DNA of 64,000 bases from Dehalococcoidia bacterium. Lineage in GTDB: Bacteria; Chloroflexota; Dehalococcoidia; DSTF01; JACRBR01. This document shows positions 9,743 to 56,565 of this stretch, piece after piece; position 1 is the stretch's first letter, and each line of letters opens with the position of its first letter. The DNA lies in contig DASRHM010000017.1 of assembly GCA_035650575.1 (NCBI GenBank), positions 1,434 to 65,433 of the forward strand. Reading direction: 5' to 3'. A model generated the notes under the pieces. It saw nothing but the letters and a program-made list of their open reading frames with translations, ran no database searches and was not told the origin of the DNA. Made by a program: the position numbers and the translations under genes.

Positions 9743-9819
9743 TGGTAGCGCCAGCGGGATTCGAACCCGCGATCTCCGCCTTGAAAGGGCGGCGTCCTAG
9801 GCCTCTAGACGATGGCGCC
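9743..9819 (-). tRNA. tRNA-Glu (anticodon UUC), CCA encoded
   Basis: Reverse complement GGCGCCATCGTCTAGAGGCCTAGGACGCCGCCCTTTCAAGGCGGAGATCGCGGGTTCGAATCCCGCTGGCGCTACCA folds as a cloverleaf with a TTC anticodon and a GTTCGAATC T-loop. Confidence 0.97.
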
Positions 9820-29697: not shown

Positions 29698-30668
29698 CCG
29701 TCGCGGCGTCGATCTACGGCCCGGCGCAGGCAGACCTGCGGCTCGTCGAAGACACGCTCGACCGGATCAAGCACGTCGAGAAATACCCGATGCTCTCGAA
29801 GATGCTGGAGCACGTGCTCGCGGGCGGCGGGAAGCGCATCCGGCCGGCGATCGCGCTGCTGGCGGGCAAGTTCGGCGCCTATGACGCCGAGGTGCACGTG
29901 CCGCTGGCGGCGTCGATCGAGCTGCTGCACGCGGCGACGCTCGTGCACGACGACGTGATCGACGCATCGCCGACGCGGCGCGGGCGGGACACGGCGAACG
30001 CGCTGTTCAACAACTCGGCGGCGGTGATGCTCGGCGACTACATGTTCGCGCACTCGGCGGAACTGATCTCGCGCACGGACAACACGCAGGTCGTGCGGCT
30101 GTTCGCGCGCACGTTGATGCAGATCGCGGGCGGCGAGCTGCACCAGGACATGAGCGCATACGACTACGGGCAGGACACGATGTCCTACTTCGGGCGCATC
30201 GAAGGCAAGACGGCGTCGCTGTTCGCGACCTCGGCGGAGGGGGGCGCAATCGTCGCGCGCTGCGGCCGGGACGAACGCCAGGCGCTGCGTCAGTACGGGC
30301 TGAACGTGGGCATGGCGTTCCAGGTCGTCGACGACATCCTGGACTTCGCCGGCGACGAGGCGGAGATGGGGAAGCCGATCGGCAGCGACCTGATGCAGGG
30401 GACGCTCACGCTGCCCTCGCTGCTCCTGATGGAGCGCCACCCGAAGGACAACCCGATCCGGAAGGCGTTCCGGACGAAGAAGCCGCGCGCGGAGCACGTC
30501 GCGGAAGCCGTGTACATGGTGCGGAACTCGAGCATCCTCGAGGAGTCGTACGACGTGGCGCGGGACTTCCGCGACCGTGCGCTCCGGGCGCTCGAGGCGC
30601 TGCCCCCGGGGGACGCCCGGACGGCGCTCGAGGACATCGCCGATTACGTGCTGGAGCGGCGGGCGTAG
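29694..30668 (+). CDS. Polyprenyl diphosphate synthase
   Basis: GGKRIRP, LVHDDVID..RRG, GKTASLF, FQVVDDILD, GKPIGSDL. Confidence 0.94.
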   Translation: MTVAASIYGPAQADLRLVEDTLDRIKHVEKYPMLSKMLEHVLAGGGKRIRPAIALLAGKFGAYDAEVHVPLAASIELLHAATLVHDDVIDASPTRRGRDTANALFNNSAAVMLGDYMFAHSAELISRTDNTQVVRLFARTLMQIAGGELHQDMSAYDYGQDTMSYFGRIEGKTASLFATSAEGGAIVARCGRDERQALRQYGLNVGMAFQVVDDILDFAGDEAEMGKPIGSDLMQGTLTLPSLLLMERHPKDNPIRKAFRTKKPRAEHVAEAVYMVRNSSILEESYDVARDFRDRALRALEALPPGDARTALEDIADYVLERRA

Positions 30669-48865: not shown

Positions 48866-50088
48866 AGCAGGTCGCCGCCGGCGGCGGGCGCCGTCGTCCC
48901 GTGCTCGCGGTACGCCTTGAGCACGTTGCGCCCGACCGTCCAGCGGTGCACCTCGTCCGGGCCGTCGACCAGGCGCTGCGAGCGGATGCTCGTGTACCAG
49001 CGCGCCAGCGGCGTGTCTTCGCTGTAGCCCAGCGCGCCGTGGAGCTGGATCGCCGTATCGACGACCTTGTGCACCATGTTCGCCAGGAACACCTTCGCGA
49101 TCGAGTTCTCCTGCCGCAGGTCCATGCCCTTCTCCGCCTTGTAGGCGATGTGCAGCAGCATCAGGCGCGCCATGTAGAGCTCGCTCGCGCAGTCGGCGAG
49201 CATCCACTGCACGCCCTGTCGCTCGGCGAGGAGCTTGCCGAACGTCGAGCGCTCGAGGACGCGCTTCGCCGCCATATCGAGCGCGCGCTGCGCCATCGCC
49301 ACGTTGTGCATGCCGTGGCGCAGGCGCCCGTACGCCAGGCGGTGCTGCCCCATGTTGAACCCCTGCCCTTCGCCGCCGACGATGTTCTCGTGCGGGACGA
49401 CGAGGTCCTTGATGATGATCTCGGCGTGGCCGCCGCCGAGCATCTCGCCGAGCCGGCTCTCGCCCGCCATCGTGCGGATGTTGCGGACGATCTGGTAGCC
49501 CGGGTTCGGCAACTCGACGAGGAACGTGCTGAACTGCTGGTGCCGCGGCGCATCGGGATTGGTCTTCGCCATGATCATGGCGATGTCGGCGACGCTGGCG
49601 CCACTGCTGAACCACTTCTCGCCGTTGAGGACCCAGTTGTCGCCGTCGCGGACGGCGCGCGTCTGCATGCCGGTGGCGTCGGCGCCCGCGGCCTTCTCGG
49701 TCATCGAGTAACAGATGCGCTTCTCGCCGTTGAGCAACGGCTTGAGGAACTTCTCCTTCTGGTAGTCGGTGCCATGCTGCAGCAGCGTGAGCATCGTCGC
49801 GTCGTCGGGGCCCTGGGTATTCAGCGCGAGCGCGCCGAGGTAGCTCTCGCCGAGCTCCATCTGCACGAGCGCATTCGCGAGCGGGCCGAGGCCCATCCCC
49901 CCGTACTCCTTCGGGATGAACGGGCACCACAGTCCCTGTGCGCGGGCCTTCTGGCGCAGCTCGCCGAGCACCTCCTTGTACGGGCGGTGCTCCAGCTCCT
50001 TCTCCGCCGGGATGCACTCCTCCTGCACGAACCTGCGCACCTTCTCGCGCACGTCCTTCGCGTCCTGCGGGATCTCGAAGTCGATCAT
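48862..50088 (-). CDS. Acyl-CoA dehydrogenase (ACAD10/11-like subfamily)
   Basis: QGPDDAT, YSMTE, LNGEKWFSSG, QHRLAYGRLRHGM, IQLHGALG, LVDGPDEVH. Confidence 0.92.
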   Translation of the reverse strand: MIDFEIPQDAKDVREKVRRFVQEECIPAEKELEHRPYKEVLGELRQKARAQGLWCPFIPKEYGGMGLGPLANALVQMELGESYLGALALNTQGPDDATMLTLLQHGTDYQKEKFLKPLLNGEKRICYSMTEKAAGADATGMQTRAVRDGDNWVLNGEKWFSSGASVADIAMIMAKTNPDAPRHQQFSTFLVELPNPGYQIVRNIRTMAGESRLGEMLGGGHAEIIIKDLVVPHENIVGGEGQGFNMGQHRLAYGRLRHGMHNVAMAQRALDMAAKRVLERSTFGKLLAERQGVQWMLADCASELYMARLMLLHIAYKAEKGMDLRQENSIAKVFLANMVHKVVDTAIQLHGALGYSEDTPLARWYTSIRSQRLVDGPDEVHRWTVGRNVLKAYREHGTTAPAAGGDLL

Positions 50089-50131
50089 CGCGTCACCTCC
50101 CGATGCCTTCCCTCTCGTACCGACGGGGTCC

Positions 50132-51205
50132 TCACGCCGCGGCGATGAACGCCTCGGCGCGCTTGAATAGCCCGAGCGTCGTCGCGTGCAGCATGTCGCC
50201 GACGGCGCGCGGCGCCTTCCCGGCGCAGGCGCGCGCGTGCGTGCCCTCGAGGATGATGCCCAGCTTGAAGCATGCGAGCACGGCGTACCAGCCGACCGCC
50301 GACAGGTCGCGCGTCGAGCGCTCGGCGTAGCGCGCGACTACCTCGTCGGGAGCGGGCAGGCCGCCGGCCGCGGCCAGTCCGGAGCCGACGGCGCCGGCGG
50401 GTTGCGCCGGGTCGGGCCAGGTCGCGAGCAGCCAGCCGAGGTCGAGCAACGGGTCGCCGATCGTGCACATCTCCCAGTCGACGATCGCCGCCAGCCGCGG
50501 GCCGTCGTGCGCGTACATCACGTTGGCGAAGTGGTAGTCGCCGTGCAGGATCCCCGGCGTGCACGACTGCGGCCGGTTGGCCTCGAGCCAGGCGGCGACC
50601 TCGTCCAGCGCCGGAATGGCGGGGCCGGGGTAGCCCTCGAAGCGGCGGTACGACTCCAGCTCGGCGAGCCAGCGCGGCACCTGGCGTTCGAGGAATCCCT
50701 GCGGCTTGCCGAGATCCGCGAGACCGAGCGCCTCGTGGTCGACCGCCGCGAGCGCCGACGCGCCATCGACGATCCGCAGCCCCATCTCGTGGCGGACCGC
50801 GGGGTCGGACGCGTGGAGCGCGGGCAAGGCGACGGTCGCGTTGAAGCCATCGACCGGCTCCATCAGGTAGAAGACGGCGCCGTTCATGACCGTCTCGTCC
50901 GGGCACGCGGCGATGAAGCGCGGGTGCGGCACGCTCGTCTGCGCGAGCGCCCGGAGGACGCGCGCCTCGCGGCGCATCACCTCGTTGCTCGCCGGCCGCA
51001 AGTGCGGCGGCCCGCGACGGAGGACGTACGCGCGACCGCCGCGCGTGAACTTCAGCATCACGTTCTGCGTGCCGCCGGCCAGGGCCTCCACGCCCGCGAC
51101 GGGTCCGCCGGGCAGGCCCTGCGCGTCCATCCACGCGGCGAGCACGTCGAAGTCGACGACGCCGCGTCCGACGCCCGACTGCTGCTGCGCGCTCGCGTCA
51201 GCCAC
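50132..51205 (-). CDS. APH-family phosphotransferase
   Basis: YVLRRGP, REARVL, LHGDYHFAN, DWEM.TIGDPLLDLG. Confidence 0.9.
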   Translation of the reverse strand: MADASAQQQSGVGRGVVDFDVLAAWMDAQGLPGGPVAGVEALAGGTQNVMLKFTRGGRAYVLRRGPPHLRPASNEVMRREARVLRALAQTSVPHPRFIAACPDETVMNGAVFYLMEPVDGFNATVALPALHASDPAVRHEMGLRIVDGASALAAVDHEALGLADLGKPQGFLERQVPRWLAELESYRRFEGYPGPAIPALDEVAAWLEANRPQSCTPGILHGDYHFANVMYAHDGPRLAAIVDWEMCTIGDPLLDLGWLLATWPDPAQPAGAVGSGLAAAGGLPAPDEVVARYAERSTRDLSAVGWYAVLACFKLGIILEGTHARACAGKAPRAVGDMLHATTLGLFKRAEAFIAAA

Positions 51206-51965
51206 CGGCGCTGCCTCCCGATACGACGAGCTGCGACCCGGTGACGAAGCTCGATGCGTCGGTCGCGAAGTAGAGGGCGGCGCCGACGATCTCTTCCGGC
51301 TCGCCGCCGCGCCGGAGCAGGACGCTCTTCTGCGCCGTCCGCCGGAACGCCTGCATGTCCCACGCCTTCGAGATATCGGTCAGGAACGGGCCGGGGACGA
51401 TGCAGTTGACGCGCACCTTCGGGGCGAAGGCGCGGGCGAAGCCGACGGTCATGTTGTTGACGCCGGCCTTCGCCGCGCCGTACGGGATGACGTTCGCGCC
51501 CGGGCTGAGCGACGCCGTGCTCGAGACGAAGATGATCGACCCGCCGGCGCCCGCCGCCATGCGCGTGCCGACGATCGCCGTGAGCCGGAACGGCCCCTTG
51601 AGGTTGACGTCGAGCACCTTGTCGTACAGCGCCTCACTGACGTTGCTCACGTGGTCGTAGACCGGCGAGAGGCCGGCGTTGTTCACCAGCACGTCGACGC
51701 GCCCGAACTCGGCGTAGGCGCGCTCGGCCAGGCGCTCGACCTGATCCCACTCGCCGACGTGGCACGCGACGGCGAGCGCGCGCCGGCCGGTGGTCGACCG
51801 CACCTCCGCGGCAAGCGCCTCGCACGCGTCGAGCTTGCGGCTGGCGATGATCACGTCGGCGCCCGCGCGCGCGAAGGCCCGCACCATCTCGCGGCCCAGG
51901 CCGCGGCTGCCGCCGGTAACGAGCGCGATGCGCCCGCTGAGGTCGAACATCTGCCCGTCCGCCAT
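51198..51965 (-). CDS. SDR oxidoreductase
   Basis: VTGGSRGLG, VNNAG, YGAAKAG, VNCIVPG. Confidence 0.92.
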   Translation of the reverse strand: MADGQMFDLSGRIALVTGGSRGLGREMVRAFARAGADVIIASRKLDACEALAAEVRSTTGRRALAVACHVGEWDQVERLAERAYAEFGRVDVLVNNAGLSPVYDHVSNVSEALYDKVLDVNLKGPFRLTAIVGTRMAAGAGGSIIFVSSTASLSPGANVIPYGAAKAGVNNMTVGFARAFAPKVRVNCIVPGPFLTDISKAWDMQAFRRTAQKSVLLRRGGEPEEIVGAALYFATDASSFVTGSQLVVSGGSAGG

Positions 51966-52088
51966 CGCGCCTCCGCCCCAGGATGGATCGCCATCGTATC
52001 CCGTGCGGGGCGGAAGCACGATGCGCGCGGCCGAAGGCCCCGCGACCGTCGCGGCCGCGCCCCGGCGGCGTCCGCGCCGGTCGGACGC

Positions 52089-52814
52089 CTACGGACGCGT
52101 GCCGAGGCCTCGGATCGCGTCGATGGCGACGTCGATCAACTGGGGAGGGATGCGCCATGCGCCGAAGCTCCAGCCCCGGAAGCGCCGGAACGCACCGACG
52201 TTGATGCGGTACGAGTTGCGCCGGCCGACCCGGCCGCGCGTGATGATCCGCTCCGCCGCAAGCTGGCGGAGCACATCGACGACGGCGCGCTCGGTGATGC
52301 CCGTCGCCTTCGCCAGCTCGCGCAGCGTCCGCGAGTCGTTCTCGGCGATCGCCAGCAGGACGAGCATGTGACTCGTGAAGAACCCCCAGGTCCCCTCGCG
52401 GGCCTCGAGTTCGTGCGCGCGGGCGCGCCGAGGCGCCCGCGCCGCGGCGCCGCCGCCCGGCGCCGTCGATGCGAGCTCGAAGAGCGCCCGCACGACCGCC
52501 TCGACGAACGGACGCGGCGTCAGCGGGCCCGTCGTGCCGCCGCGACGCACGGTCGAAAGGCGCGCAAAGTCGACCGAGTAGGCGTTGCGGCGCCCACGCC
52601 GGTGCCTCGTGATGATCCCGTCCGCATCGAGGTCGCGCAGCATGGCGAGCGTCGCCCGCTCCGTTATGTCGATGCCATCCGCGATCTCGCGCACGGTCGA
52701 GTCGGGATGGGCGATGACATAGATGAGCACGACCGCCTGGTTCGTCAGGAAGCGCCACGTTGCCGGCGCCTGAGCGCGTGGCGGCTGGTCGCGGACGTGT
52801 TGCGGGATCGTCAT
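52089..52814 (-). CDS. Tandem winged-helix (MarR-like) DNA-binding protein with two HTH repeats
   Basis: WRFLTNQ..VL...TVREIA..IDITERA...GRRNAY and WGFFTSH..VL...TLRELA..GITERA...GRRNSY. Confidence 0.82.
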   Translation of the reverse strand: MTIPQHVRDQPPRAQAPATWRFLTNQAVVLIYVIAHPDSTVREIADGIDITERATLAMLRDLDADGIITRHRRGRRNAYSVDFARLSTVRRGGTTGPLTPRPFVEAVVRALFELASTAPGGGAAARAPRRARAHELEAREGTWGFFTSHMLVLLAIAENDSRTLRELAKATGITERAVVDVLRQLAAERIITRGRVGRRNSYRINVGAFRRFRGWSFGAWRIPPQLIDVAIDAIRGLGTRP

Positions 52815-52981
52815 GTTGACATATCCATAGAAGCAGCGATCGTGCTCCCGCGTTCACCTGTCGTGCTTCGGCGTATCTTCGCGCAGGTCCTCCCCGCCTG
52901 GCAATACCCGCGGCGCTCATCCCGGCGCAATCGGCGACGGCACGTTCCCGCCCCGGAACGCTCCCGCGAGCCTCGCGGGTA

Positions 52982-53026
52982 TTGACAGGGCGAAGCTCAG
53001 CAGTAGAATACAGGCAATAATTATCA
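52982..53026 (+). promoter_or_regulatory. Near-consensus sigma70 promoter with a downstream Fur-like palindrome
   Basis: TTGACA (52982-52987), 16-nt spacer, TAGAAT (53004-53009); AGGCAATAATTATCA (53012-53026). Confidence 0.75.
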
Positions 53027-53267
53027 GGTAATGGCACTCACGCTTCGTCATTCAGGTGAATGGATTCACGAGTGAAGACGGGGATGCTCGCGGGAGCGGT
53101 TCTGCAGGGGACTCGGGTGAGGACGGCTCCACTAGTTCCGGCGGGGAAACCAGGCTAGGAGCAGTCCTCGGGGCGGCGTGGCCAGCCGCCCTCCCTCCAC
53201 CAGATCGGACCCTTGGGAAGAGCGCGACGCAGCGGAGCCGGCACAGGAGGGCCGGCTCCTCGTTTCG
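53016..53267 (+). ncRNA. Candidate structured small RNA or long leader, family unassigned
   Basis: Lies between a strong promoter and a terminator-like hairpin; several stems, including GAGGAC/GTCCTC closing a GAAA-capped helix; non-coding-like codon use. Confidence 0.45.
53234..53267 (+). terminator. Terminator-like hairpin
   Basis: GGAGCCGGC-ACAGGAGG-GCCGGCTCC followed by TCGTTTCG. Confidence 0.5.
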
Positions 53268-53456
53268 TCGTGCGCAGGCGCGGTCGTGCGGCGCACGCCG
53301 GCGCGAGCGGGCGGATACCGACGCTGCGCGCCGGATGCGTGCGCAGCCGAACACCGTCCCTCGGCGGTCGCCGCAGCGCCGGGGGACGCGAGCTTGACCG
53401 CGCCCCGCGCAGCGCGCATCGTTCGACCGTCGTCTCGCGAGAGCAGCGGAGGATGC

Positions 53457-54455
53457 ATGGTACGGCTGACTGCCGCCGACGAAGGCTTCTACCACCAGAT
53501 CCCGGAGCCGCTCCCGAACGTCGCGACGCAGCACGACCACTGGCGCGAGAGCTACTTCTTCGTGCTGCATCCGCGGTCCGGGCCCGGGGACGTGGTCATC
53601 CTGACGATGGCGCACTATCCGGCGCGCGAGATTATGGACTCGCTGCAGCTCGGACGCATCGACGGGCAGTTCGTCTTCGCGCGGCACGAGCGGCCCTACG
53701 ACGGCGACCCGCACACGACGGCGGTCGGGCCGGTGCGCATCGATATCGTCGAGCCGTACCGGGAGGTGCGCCTGCACGTCGATGACGGCGCGCCCGTGTC
53801 GCTCGACCTGACGTTCACCGCGCGCACCCGGGCGTACGGGTTGCGCCGGGGCACCATGAAGCGCGGGAGCGAGATCATCTGGGACCAGAGCCACATGATC
53901 CAGTCCGGCACATACCGCGGGACCTACACGAAGGACGGCGTGACGCGCACGGTGGATGACTGGTGGGGCCAGCGCGACCACTCCTGGGGGATCCGCGACC
54001 ACGCCCGCTGCCCGCTCTGGATGTGGTTCCAGATCCAGTTCGACGACGGCATGCTCGGCGTCTGGCACTGGGAGTACGCGAACGGCGCCCGCGTGTACAC
54101 CGACGGCTGCTTCGCCCGGGCGGACGGCGGCGAGCCGATCCCGGTCATCGATTTCCGGCACGACGAGATGCACTGGACGGACGCCGATGGGAAGCCCGCG
54201 GACTACGGGAAGTCCGGCGAGCGGACGGTCGGGCTCGCCGGGCGCTGCGTGTTCACCCTCGAAGGCGGCAAGAAGGTCGTCATCGATGCCGAAGGGACGC
54301 GCTGCGCGCCGTATGGGGCGCTCGGCGGCGGACTGCACCAGATGACGGTGCGAGCGGACGACGGCCGGACCGGGACGGCGATCTTCGAGGTGACGGGCGC
54401 GCACCACCACCAGTACTTCCCGGTCCCGCGCGGGGAGCGCCTGCCGCCGGGCTGA
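53457..54455 (+). CDS. Hypothetical protein, tocopherol-cyclase/CrtC-like beta-barrel
   Basis: GGAGG RBS; WRESYFF, GQRDHSWGIRD and W.WFQ..FDDG motifs. Confidence 0.6.
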   Translation: MVRLTAADEGFYHQIPEPLPNVATQHDHWRESYFFVLHPRSGPGDVVILTMAHYPAREIMDSLQLGRIDGQFVFARHERPYDGDPHTTAVGPVRIDIVEPYREVRLHVDDGAPVSLDLTFTARTRAYGLRRGTMKRGSEIIWDQSHMIQSGTYRGTYTKDGVTRTVDDWWGQRDHSWGIRDHARCPLWMWFQIQFDDGMLGVWHWEYANGARVYTDGCFARADGGEPIPVIDFRHDEMHWTDADGKPADYGKSGERTVGLAGRCVFTLEGGKKVVIDAEGTRCAPYGALGGGLHQMTVRADDGRTGTAIFEVTGAHHHQYFPVPRGERLPPG

Positions 54456-54657
54456 AGCGAGCGCGGGGCGCACCTCCGCGCTGCGTTCGCGGCGACGGCG
54501 TCCCGGCCCGGCCGGTCCCGGCGCTGCGGATCGACGGCGGCGGGTCGAAGCTGATCCTGTCAGGGGCGCGAGAACTTTACATGGCCCGCGCGACGCGCGT
54601 CACCAAACGCGCGCGGACGGCGTTTGATCCGATAGCCCATCTCGCGAGGAGGCGCCC

Positions 54658-56565
54658 GTGCTCCGTCGAGCGACCGTGATCGTCGCGGCCTTCACCGCCA
54701 TCGCCCTCGCGCCGCTGGTGCTGCGGCTCGGCACGTCGGGCGCAAGCACGCCGCAGCCGCCGCTGCGCGAGGCCGCGGCGCCGCCGCCTGCGGGCGGTGG
54801 CGCCATCGCGCCCGGGCGCCTGGTCGTGCGCTTCAAGCCGGGCGTTTCGGCGGACGCGATGCGCTTCCAAAATGCGGCGCTCGGGGCGCGCGAGGCCGGG
54901 AGCCATCCGCGCTCCGGGCTGCACGTGCTGCAGCTCTCCAACGCCGCCGCGGCGGATGCGGCGCTCGCCGCCTACCGGCGCAGCCCGATCGTCGAGTCCG
55001 CGGGGTACAGCTACGTCGTGCGCGCGTTCGACGCGCCGAACGACACGAACTACGCGTACCAGTGGGACATGCACGACACGACGGGCGGCGTCTGGGCCGA
55101 ATCGGCGTGGGGCCTGGCGACGAACCACGGGCAGGGCGTCGTCGTCGCCGTCATCGACTCCGGCGTGGCCTACGAGGACTTCACGGGCCCGGGGCCGCTC
55201 GGCAACTCGACGGTGTACCGCCGTTCGCCGGACCTTGCCGGCAAGACGTTCGTGGCGCCGTATGACTTCGTGAACAACGACGCGCACCCGAACGACGACA
55301 ACGGGCACGGCACGCACGTCACGGGCACGATCGCGGAGGACACGGATAACAACTTCGGCGTGGCGGGCGTCGCCTACGCCGCGACGATCATGCCACTGAA
55401 GGTGATCCAGCTCGATGGAACCGGCCAGGACGCGGACCTCGTGGAGGCGCTGTACTACGCCGTGGACCACGGGGCGCGGGTGATCAACATGAGCCTGGGC
55501 TTCAGCGGCACCGGCGCGCCGGACGCGAACGGCGTCCCCTGCACGGAGGTCGTCGGCTTGAACGACGCGCTCGAGTACGCGTACAGCCACGGGGTGGTGA
55601 TCGCCGCGGCGGCGGGCAACGAGGGCGCGAACGTGGTGAGCTGCCCCGCCGCGTACCCGACGGTGATCGCCGTCGGCGCGACACGGTTCGACGGCACGCG
55701 CCCAGCGTACTCGAACACGGGCAGCGCGCTCGACGTCGCGGCCGCCGGCGGCGACCCGAACGTCGACCAGAACCACGACGGCTTCTCCGACGGCGTCGTC
55801 TCCGAGACCTACTGCTACGACTACATCAGCCTGCTCTTCCTCGGGAGCTACGACGCGTTCTGCGACATCTTCATGTCCGGCACGTCGATGGCGACGCCGC
55901 ACGTCGCCGGCCTCGCGGCGCTGCTGCTCGGGGAAGATGCGACACTCACCCCGGACCAGGTGCGCGCGCTGATCCGGGCCACGGCCCGCGACCGCGGCGC
56001 GGCCGGATGGGACCCGGCGTACGGCTGGGGCGAGATCGACGCGCGCGCCGCCGTCGCGGCGCTGGCCGGCGCTTCGCCGACGGCGACGCCGCCGGCCGCG
56101 ACCAGCACGCCAGCCGACACGGCGACGAGCACGCCGACCGCCACGAACACCGCCGTCCCGACGGCGACGAGCACGCCGAACGCCACGAACACGGCCGTCC
56201 CGACGGCCACGCGCACGCCGGCGCCCGTGCCCGCGCTCCACGTCGGCGACCTGGATGGTTCGGCACGGATCCGGCGCTCCGGGTGGAACGCGCAGGTCGT
56301 CGTCACCGTGCACGATGCGTCCCACCGCACGCGCTCCGGCGTCGTGGTGAGCGCGGCCTGGGGCGGCGCGGCCGCGGGCCCGGCCACGTGCACGACCAAC
56401 GGCAAGGGCCAGTGCACGCTCACATCGGCGCTGGTGCCGCTGTCGAGCACGTCGGTGTCACTGACGGTCAGCGGGCTCAGCGCACCCGGCTCCGTCTACG
56501 ACGCCGCGGCGAACCACGACCCGGACGGCAGCAGCACCGGCACGGCCATCGTCGTCACGAGGTAG
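54658..56565 (+). CDS. Secreted S8 (subtilisin-family) serine protease with Thr/Pro linker and C-terminal beta domain
   Basis: VAVIDSG (Asp), NGHGTHVTG (His), GTSMATPH (Ser), AAAGN; signal peptide; GAGGAGG RBS. Confidence 0.93.
   Translation: MLRRATVIVAAFTAIALAPLVLRLGTSGASTPQPPLREAAAPPPAGGGAIAPGRLVVRFKPGVSADAMRFQNAALGAREAGSHPRSGLHVLQLSNAAAADAALAAYRRSPIVESAGYSYVVRAFDAPNDTNYAYQWDMHDTTGGVWAESAWGLATNHGQGVVVAVIDSGVAYEDFTGPGPLGNSTVYRRSPDLAGKTFVAPYDFVNNDAHPNDDNGHGTHVTGTIAEDTDNNFGVAGVAYAATIMPLKVIQLDGTGQDADLVEALYYAVDHGARVINMSLGFSGTGAPDANGVPCTEVVGLNDALEYAYSHGVVIAAAAGNEGANVVSCPAAYPTVIAVGATRFDGTRPAYSNTGSALDVAAAGGDPNVDQNHDGFSDGVVSETYCYDYISLLFLGSYDAFCDIFMSGTSMATPHVAGLAALLLGEDATLTPDQVRALIRATARDRGAAGWDPAYGWGEIDARAAVAALAGASPTATPPAATSTPADTATSTPTATNTAVPTATSTPNATNTAVPTATRTPAPVPALHVGDLDGSARIRRSGWNAQVVVTVHDASHRTRSGVVVSAAWGGAAAGPATCTTNGKGQCTLTSALVPLSSTSVSLTVSGLSAPGSVYDAAANHDPDGSSTGTAIVVTR
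56119..56202 (+). repeat. 2 x 42-nt in-frame duplication encoding the TATSTP.ATNTAVP linker
   Basis: 56119-56160 and 56161-56202 are nearly identical. Confidence 0.8.

Follow-up and report, generated by a model that had tools for sequence, protein, structure and literature searches.

A structured non-coding RNA gene back-to-back with a tandem winged-helix regulator in a Dehalococcoidia genome

The locus and its RNA gene

We analyzed a window of 64,000 nucleotides (64 kb) from a Dehalococcoidia bacterium (contig DASRHM010000017.1) and, within it, the element at 52982-53271, which lies between a divergently transcribed regulator gene and a gene for a 332-aa protein. The element is a discrete, conserved and structured RNA gene with obligatory linkage to the regulator, and transcription was seen for its relatives. 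We consider it probable that 52982-53271 forms an independent gene for a non-coding RNA and belongs, in shortened form, to an unclassified Dehalococcoidia family standing back-to-back with a tandem winged-helix regulator, a reading that takes in the proposals made below on regulator, operator and core product. Dehalococcoidia are abundant in soils, aquifers and wastewater and are mostly uncultured, and to our knowledge almost no regulatory RNAs have been described from them. The features of the locus are collected in Table 1.

The promoter of the element, TTGACA-N16-TAGAAT, matched at 11/12 positions and was the sole sigma-70-like site in 50000-56000 (0.2 sites in shuffles). Its TTGACAG...TAnAAT form was kept in 30/30 homologues in our alignments. 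The strong promoter named in the original prediction for this DNA, an iron-responsive small RNA (sRNA), is present and is the best in this 6-kb scan. With its predicted ends, the RNA spans roughly 53016-53270 (~255 nt), and 52997-53076 is the 80-nt stretch with the lowest GC content in the window (42.5% vs 71.4%).

Public soil and rhizosphere runs contained strains near-identical to the window. Compared over 52700-53700, the contig of one such strain (X2) showed 33 substitutions and 16 gapped positions, none of them inside 53034-53270, while both flanks (52761-53033 and 53271-53392) were dense in substitutions and indels. This run without differences between variable flanks indicates a discrete element that ends just past its terminal hairpin. 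The 186 nt between the RNA terminator and the next gene (53271-53456, GC ~77-82%) were hypervariable among close strains, with many substitutions and indels of 1-14 nt, in contrast with the invariant RNA. A 14-codon open reading frame (ORF) proposed earlier inside the transcript did not hold up, as its ATG was lost in X2 (53033 G>A) and was absent from the three closest homologues (L081, L084 and L086).

Table 1 Features of the RNA gene and its surroundings (positions in the window)
Feature	Position	Strand	Remarks
Divergent regulator, 241 aa, two winged-helix (MarR/ArsR-like) domains	52089-52814	-	Pfam MarR_2 (two stretches) and HTH_24
Conserved block adjoining the regulator start codon, contains GTTCACCTG	52815-52865		Conserved in a four-way alignment
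Promoter	52982-53009	+	-35 TTGACA 52982-52987, 16-nt spacer, -10 TAGAAT 53004-53009; conserved in homologues
Predicted transcription start	~53016	+	From spacing alone
Five boxes 14 nt apart: ACAGG 53010, TCAGG 53024, TCACG 53038, TCAGG 53052, TCACG 53066	53010-53070	+	None expected by chance
Hairpin UUC-AG-GUG / CAC-GAG, overlapping boxes 4 and 5	53051-53072	+	Predicted on 30 sequences; sequence-conserved
Small hairpin GCUC-GCGG-GAGC, variable sequence	53086-53097	+	Replaces the ~110-nt middle domain and longer variable hairpin of the main clade
Pa hairpin GGUUCU / GGGACU	53098-53113	+	Covariance-model alignment; moderate support, ~76% of cells paired
Three-way junction Pb/P3/P4	53115-53196	+	P3 and P4 covary; matched by model R2
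Pb, 3 bp closing the junction	GGG 53115-53117 with CCU 53194-53196	+	Near-invariant: at one pair, G-C in 26 and G-U in 4
P3, long irregular hairpin	53119-53169	+	Covaries; unpaired conserved G-run GGCGGGG at 53140-53146
P4 hairpin, 9 bp, loop GUGGCCA (53178-53184)	53170-53192	+	Covaries
C-rich tract CCCUCCCUCC	53189-53198	+	Predicted mostly paired: 3' strand of P4 and Pb
Linker, partly conserved (GAUCGGACCC.UGGGAAG)	53197-53233	+	Alignments
Intrinsic-terminator hairpin GGAGCCGGC / GCCGGCUCC	Stem 53234-53242 with 53251-53259	+	Stem pairs covary
Terminator loop ACAGGAGG	53243-53250	+	Invariant GGAG
Terminator tail UCGUUUCGUCGU	Up to 53271	+	Strain-level conservation stops at 53270

Homologues, fold and expression of the RNA

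We found ~30 homologues of the window RNA, all in metagenome-assembled genomes (MAGs) of Dehalococcoidia/Chloroflexota. A profile search of GTDB species representatives for regulator homologues returned 53 loci, nearly all in Dehalococcoidia/Chloroflexota MAGs, and the genomes concerned often carried two or three regulator paralogues. When the window regulator was used by itself to scan GTDB genomes, no matches were obtained. A hidden Markov model (HMM) built from the clade of the window alone located the RNA upstream of ~26 of the 53 regulator loci (E down to 1e-25). Copies of the main clade measure 381-505 nt from the -10 element to 14 nt beyond the terminator and share one order of parts: a promoter of the form TTGACAG-N5-TTTCA[C/G]GAAC-TA[C/G]AAT, an array of 14-nt units, a ~110-nt middle domain, the structured core, a ~45-nt linker and a terminator hairpin whose loop always includes AGGAGG or GGAG, followed by a good U tract. 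The ~110-nt middle domain is absent from the window clade. In a four-way alignment the promoter was conserved, as were ACAGGCAA behind the -10 element and the terminal hairpin, and the long hairpin carried insertions of variable length. A further segment, GGTCCTCGG[G/A]GCGGC..GGCC.GCCGC[C/T]CTCCCT, was near-invariant, with one G:C pair replaced by A:T.

A genome scan with a DNA pattern for the RNA only, filtered by covariance model, yielded 27 true matches, again all in Dehalococcoidia/Chloroflexota, with a divergent regulator upstream wherever the contig extends; pattern matches outside Chloroflexota all failed the covariance model. A convergent folD gene lay downstream of the RNA in 26/27 main-clade loci. 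The main-clade RNA forms a transcription unit of its own, with a bidirectional terminator region in common with folD, and is not a leader. Three-block DNA patterns from the window clade matched 86 GTDB loci, all of them by chance, and gave one real match in JGI metagenomes, identical to L084; the near-empty scans indicate that the reduced clade of the window is very rare in public data. In one MAG, GL140_4, each of two contigs has an RNA core beside folD (L250 and L301; JANXYW010000069 and JANXYW010000266), explained either by true duplication or by a bin that mixes strains.

Known RNA families gave no match to the element. Rfam 15 at gathering thresholds matched a single RNA in the whole window, a tRNA gene at 9746-9819 on the minus strand (65.9 bits; anticodon loop CUUUCAA, probably tRNA-Glu(UUC)). 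At E<=10, 52800-53500 returned noise only (rpfG at 13.7 bits vs a threshold of 75.9; CRISPR-DR20), and among relatives six full-length copies had nothing at E<=1 and L221 had noise only at E<=10. The unmatched families include FsrA, RyhB, 6S, SRP, RNase P, tmRNA, CsrB/Rsm, ZTP, THF, raiA, OLE, ROOL and HEARO, so that this covariance-model check, proposed with the original prediction, turned up no known or housekeeping family. A literature search found no description of a regulator-linked Dehalococcoidia RNA. Neither Rfam 15 nor the literature searched describes the family, its fold, its tandem winged-helix partner or its phased, transcribed operator array.

The fold was derived with RNAalifold on 30 sequences followed by covariance-model realignment with a hand-specified structure; a default MAFFT/RNAalifold run on the core, which missed P3 owing to a misaligned variable region, was replaced by this realignment. 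In the family model Pb pairs GGG with CCC. Standard pairs filled 84.8% of cells in the realigned core, and sliding the partner columns as a control lowered pairing to 44-61%. Both sides changed at 21/39 pairs and in 94 cells, against 13.1 pairs and 29 cells in shuffles, and 0/500 shuffles reached the observed values; the main clade alone gave the same picture. The realigned sets are fitted to the model, which favours structure, but the unfitted L-INS-i alignment has the same compensatory patterns. The core contained 149 G-U/U-G pairs against 29 A-C/C-A pairs, and the overall totals were 289 and 37; this excess indicates that the structure is maintained on the promoter strand. Support is good for helices P3a, P3c and P4 and for the terminator stem, moderate for Pa and weak for P3b. 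Pb and the 5' hairpins show little or no variation and hence no covariation signal either way; in the hairpin that overlaps boxes 4 and 5 the pairs barely vary, and the alignment therefore speaks neither for nor against this helix. The single-sequence fold was unexceptional (-114.6 kcal/mol, z = -1.59).

Homology of the core was tested both ways. The HMM from the window clade finds main-clade RNAs, and R2, a covariance model built from 28 main-clade sequences without the window clade, matches the window at 53094-53203 with 41.5 bits (E 2.3e-8). The next match of R2 in the window, at 30298-30435 on the plus strand, scored 14.9 bits (E 0.07) and is probably a chance match in GC-rich sequence. 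Structural conservation in relatives had been looked for, and the helices are indeed maintained there by compensatory changes. Among the pairings originally predicted, the long helix at 53119-53169 exists, as does the GGGCGGC/GCCGCCC hairpin, which is P4, and both show compensatory changes in relatives. The terminator-like hairpin placed at 53234-53267 has its stem at 53234-53259, likewise with compensatory changes, and relatives have clear U tracts behind it; CATTC/GAATG (53049-53062) is not the conserved pairing. Homologues, covariation and the missing Rfam match together support a stand-alone, unclassified, structured RNA of ~250 nt with its own promoter and terminator, as had been proposed. 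The P4 loop contains a self-complementary GGCC in all 30 homologues, the Pa/Pb junction of the main clade, UCCCGGGA, is an 8-nt palindrome, and judging by complementarity either could serve as an RNA-RNA dimerisation site. An extended Pb (GGGAAG with CUUCCC) with a competing GGGAAG in the linker was considered as a switch and dropped, its support being inconsistent across sequences.

Transcription was seen in public RNA runs for two relatives. L214 was covered by a 190-nt contig over the array and middle domain in a soil metatranscriptome and by a 157-nt contig over the core from wastewater, both 100% identical, and the same runs had no identical contigs over the flanking folD or regulator genes. 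For this locus contig depth in runs X9 and X12 was uniform across genes and is uninformative on enrichment. L223 was represented in three RNA runs from two studies by contigs ~90% identical that covered the core only (RNA positions 238/256 to ~367-370). In the runs from plant samples an Illumina adapter abuts the contig at both ends (X8) or at the 3' end (X7); the contig of the soil run simply stops near the same 3' position, and the 3' end falls 1-3 nt past the CCC of Pb. These contigs, which come from other species, suggest a stable processed core of ~112-130 nt.

The box array and the divergent regulator

The 5' part of the RNA carries a series of short boxes in 14-nt phase. The window has four exact TCASG boxes (53024, 53038, 53052 and 53066) preceded by the near-exact ACAGG at 53010. 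Among homologues, TCA-to-TCA distances measured over the first 150 nt fall on multiples of 14 in 63% of cases (7% expected), units begin WWTCA[G/C/T]G, and the number of units varies by insertions of exactly 14, 28 or 42 nt. The homologue series starts at -13 relative to the base after the -10 element, inside the promoter spacer, and a second in-phase box lies between the -10 element and the predicted start. Sites of the form TTCA[C/G]GAA occur in the RNA promoter spacer and again 70, 84, 98 or 112 bp downstream. They also precede regulator paralogues without an RNA, at a distance of 30-80 bp, within a block homologous to part of the 5' and middle region of the RNA (TTCA.GAA..CTAAC.TGTTAT..TTCACC..ATCATGC). 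There the block abuts the regulator start codon and, if transcribed, would be read in the opposite sense. The presence of one and the same box both in promoter spacers and ahead of paralogues lacking the RNA makes the boxes most likely DNA operators of the regulator; the TCA[C/G]G series is probably an operator array of the adjacent regulator that is also transcribed as a 5' leader. After the -10 element, main-clade copies (e.g. L207 and L209) have a 10-bp palindrome-like AT[A/G]CATG[T/C]AT, which is the perfect ATACATGTAT in L207 and L209 and is replaced by ATACAGGCAA in the window clade; its symmetry suggests that another DNA-binding factor, a dimer, acts at the start site.

The original prediction had placed a Fur-like box over the predicted start. 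The match is there: AGGCAATAATTATCA at 53012-53026 differs from the 7-1-7 consensus at three positions (11 of 14 match) and is the sole such site in the window (0.07 expected by chance; 7/100 shuffles give at least one). The core of the box is not conserved, reading AGGCAATCGTACTCA, AGGCAACCTTAATCA and AGGCAAGATGAATCA in L081, L084 and L086, where the AT-rich part is lost and ..ATCA[G/C]G is kept; the main clade has AT[A/G]CATG[T/C]AT followed by AATCA[G/C]G at this position. The perfect half-site of the Fur box, TGATAAT, is the reverse complement of ATTATCA, a heptamer that ends in the TCA of the second box and is otherwise AT-rich spacer. As the half-site is a unit of the 14-nt array, the box is explained without Fur; the consensus match stands, the iron control built upon it is not supported, and the iron/Fur label should be dropped.

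No gene other than the regulator accompanies the RNA at every homologous locus covered by a sufficiently long contig. Beyond the Pfam domains of Table 1, it has an ArsR/SmtB-like NCBIfam match under the family cut-off, lacks conserved cysteines and, searched as a profile against Protein Data Bank (PDB) sequences, gave weak MarR and SmtB matches and nothing stronger. Its closest homologues share 75-80% identity, and each has DNA homologous to the window intergenic region directly upstream (nhmmer E 4e-45 to 9e-22). The block at 52815-52865 probably serves the regulator itself as a leader or operator. RNA-less regulator paralogues have a related block, TTCA[G/C]GAA..CTAAC.TGTTAT..TTCACC..ATCATGC, directly at their ATG.

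Downstream genes differ from locus to locus. In the window the next gene (53457-54455, plus strand; 332 aa) has no Pfam domain and falls in the Rv3169 family of NCBIfam (168.6 bits, cut-off 150), a protein widespread in Chloroflexota and Acidimicrobiia. At 80 loci encoding homologues of it, the upstream DNA had no nucleotide similarity to 52900-53460, and the RNA is thus not linked to this gene. The RNA is followed by a 645-aa ORF in L081/L082, a TPP-enzyme-like gene in L084 and convergent folD in the main clade; within the window clade these genes are unrelated to each other and to that of the window, and those of the window and L084 are co-oriented with the RNA. With variable downstream genes and a constant regulator, the conserved unit is regulator plus RNA. 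The 64-kb window contains no folD and no second regulator, and its module is a relocated, reduced copy of the main-clade module.

Some regulator relatives stand without a recognizable RNA. Those ~60% identical to the window regulator (P0006, P0008 and P0009) have no RNA adjacent. At L175 (1706-2208) a regulator 60% identical to that of the window faces a 500-nt divergent intergenic region with a TTGACA...TACATT promoter-like site of its own; no homology between this region and the RNA family could be detected, and it may represent another kind of leader or RNA. A weak R1 match (17.4 bits, E 0.24) lies at L232 1014-1143 on the minus strand, upstream of a regulator 51% identical to that of the window and with AATCAGG boxes present, and could come from a family member that has diverged or been truncated. 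RNA-less paralogues (L196-L206, L208, L211, L219 and L240) share a second conserved motif ~100-170 nt upstream, TT[T/G]ACAACCCCCCAAA(T)TTCGCC or TTTCAACCCCC.., located beyond the operator block and reading away from the regulator; it might be a further promoter or some other conserved element. An aconitase gene is the divergent neighbour in L174.

Interpretation and comparison with known systems

In the arrangement we favour, the regulator would bind the phased TCA[C/G]G boxes on DNA, across the promoter and the first ~60 transcribed bases, and so set the amount of RNA. The 3' two-thirds fold into Pa and the Pb/P3/P4 junction, with its unpaired G-run and GGCC loop; this core would be the functional product and may work in trans, with a protein or small ligand as its binding partner or through self-association. 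Action through a C-rich, anti-Shine-Dalgarno seed is unlikely. Several points weigh against the arrangement. No homology constrains the function of the core, and binding of the regulator to the boxes is deduced from sequence. The start site and 3' end in the window are predicted rather than measured, and a strict terminator scan found no site in the window, whose U tract is weak. The operator copy in the promoter spacer is missing or degenerate in the window clade, and regulator control there may differ for this reason. None of the RNA runs contains the sequence of the window itself, and the L214 contigs have a depth of 2-4, which leaves abundance uncertain. Adapter orientation gives the strand only with known library chemistry, and if the X7 and X8 libraries are of the dUTP type it would point to the opposite strand.

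An extended form of the module is conceivable but rather unlikely: the tandem winged-helix protein would polymerise on the 14-bp array, the nascent or mature leader RNA, or else the copy number of the array units, could feed back on the regulator, and the ~110-130-nt core would be a ligand-sensing or self-associating effector tied to one-carbon metabolism via folD. The most serious rival is a cis-acting or antisense-to-folD model, which we hold to be unlikely, in which the junction acts as an aptamer controlling the terminator, with read-through into the Rv3169-family gene at 53457 in the window or antisense to folD in the main clade. It can point to the aptamer-like junction followed by a terminator hairpin, to folD synteny in 26/27 loci, to the co-oriented downstream genes of the window and L084, and to GGGAAG motifs that flank the CUUCCC tract and could compete for it; yet the downstream genes are unrelated across the window clade and convergent in the main clade, the 80 loci with homologues of the downstream gene are without the element, the linker and the 186 nt to the gene are poorly conserved and indel-rich, and riboswitches do not usually come with a dedicated regulator or with a leader as long as ~250 nt. 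Neither ZTP, THF nor any other riboswitch matched; a ZTP-like relationship, considered because of folD, ended with the lack of a model match. The attenuator for the downstream gene, an alternative in the original prediction, fits poorly because downstream genes differ and the next gene of the main clade is convergent. We rate as quite unlikely that the box array acts as RNA, as a platform for a multi-subunit RNA-binding protein such as the regulator itself (titration or sponge) or Rho (regularly spaced YC dimers). The array is transcribed, changes its unit number in exact 14-nt steps, is AU-rich and predicted to be largely unstructured, and is spanned with the middle domain of L214 by one metatranscriptome contig, but two in-phase boxes lie ahead of the predicted start, one of them in the untranscribed spacer of the promoter and the other past the -10 element, and the same block abuts the regulator ATG in RNA-less loci in the opposite transcription sense.

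The remaining readings are weaker. A CsrA/RsmA sponge presenting GGA motifs in loops is very improbable: the terminator loop has its invariant GGAG, the window's ACAGGAGG resembles the CsrA SELEX (systematic evolution of ligands by exponential enrichment) motif and the Pa loop of the main clade is GAAAGGAG, but this amounts to two conserved GGA loops (terminator, and Pa in the main clade) against many in known sponges, the Pa loop of the window is GCAG, and CsrB, RsmY and RsmZ had no Rfam match. The original prediction, a Fur-repressed, iron-responsive sRNA of the FsrA/RyhB type with Fur over the start and a C-rich tract pairing with Shine-Dalgarno sequences, is largely refuted and highly improbable. 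In its favour are the one consensus match over the predicted start and the C-rich run at 53189-53198; against it, the box core is unconserved and its matching half-site belongs to the array, the C-rich tract, which was to be a single-stranded seed, is predicted to be paired within P4 and Pb in the covariation-supported model, neither FsrA, RyhB nor any other sRNA family matched in Rfam, and the linked regulator is a tandem winged-helix protein without conserved cysteines and not Fur. Hardly credible at all is that the element is no RNA, and instead a purely DNA-level regulatory region or a small protein gene. The box array does behave like DNA operators and the single-sequence fold has a z-score of only -1.59, but the compensatory helix changes, the strong excess of G-U over A-C, the conserved promoter and terminator and the metatranscriptome contigs contradict this, and indels that are not multiples of three, with the lost ATG, exclude a coding region.

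With ~30 members, a supported fold, a dedicated transcription factor, a recognizable operator code and evidence of expression, the family of the stand-alone RNA gene is a testable system. Its array of variable unit number, running from the promoter into the transcript in 14-bp steps, is an unusual regulatory layout, the strict folD synteny hints at a link to folate/one-carbon metabolism, and a plausible but wrong annotation as an iron/Fur sRNA is corrected.

Divergent pairs of a transcription factor and an sRNA are known from enterobacteria in OxyR-OxyS, GcvA-GcvB and SgrR-SgrS. Like these, the present locus has a non-coding RNA gene back-to-back with its presumed regulator and an operator overlapping the RNA promoter. 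Unlike them, it has a single-chain tandem winged-helix regulator instead of a LysR-type or SgrR-type protein, a phased 14-bp operator array reaching 60-140 bp into the transcribed region, and an RNA of 255 nt (400-500 nt in most relatives) that is highly structured, has no evident single-stranded seed and shares no sequence homology with theirs. With FsrA and RyhB it shares an independent promoter and terminator and a C-rich stretch, but here the Fur box is unconserved, the C-rich stretch is predicted to be paired, Rfam gives no match and the regulator is not Fur. CsrB and RsmZ also have GGA in hairpin loops; here only two are conserved, and there is no family match. Riboswitches can drive antisense or non-coding transcripts, as the B12 riboswitch does with AspocR in Listeria, and the ZTP (pfl) riboswitch often lies upstream of folD. 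The window RNA resembles both in its junction-type domain followed by a terminator and in its genomic association with folD, but folD is convergent here, ZTP and THF models are unmatched at E<=10, the linker is poorly conserved and there is a dedicated regulator. Comparative genomics has also brought to light large structured bacterial RNAs, raiA, OLE, ROOL, GOLLD and HEARO, with which the family shares a multi-helix fold supported by covariation, a narrow phylogenetic range and no known function; the window RNA is smaller, has no Rfam match to them, and is strictly tied to a transcription factor, with folD as a further partner in the main clade. ROOL, GOLLD and OLE have been reported to be homo-oligomeric (PMC12286853), and the invariant GGCC of the P4 loop, being self-complementary, could likewise allow self-association of the RNA described here.

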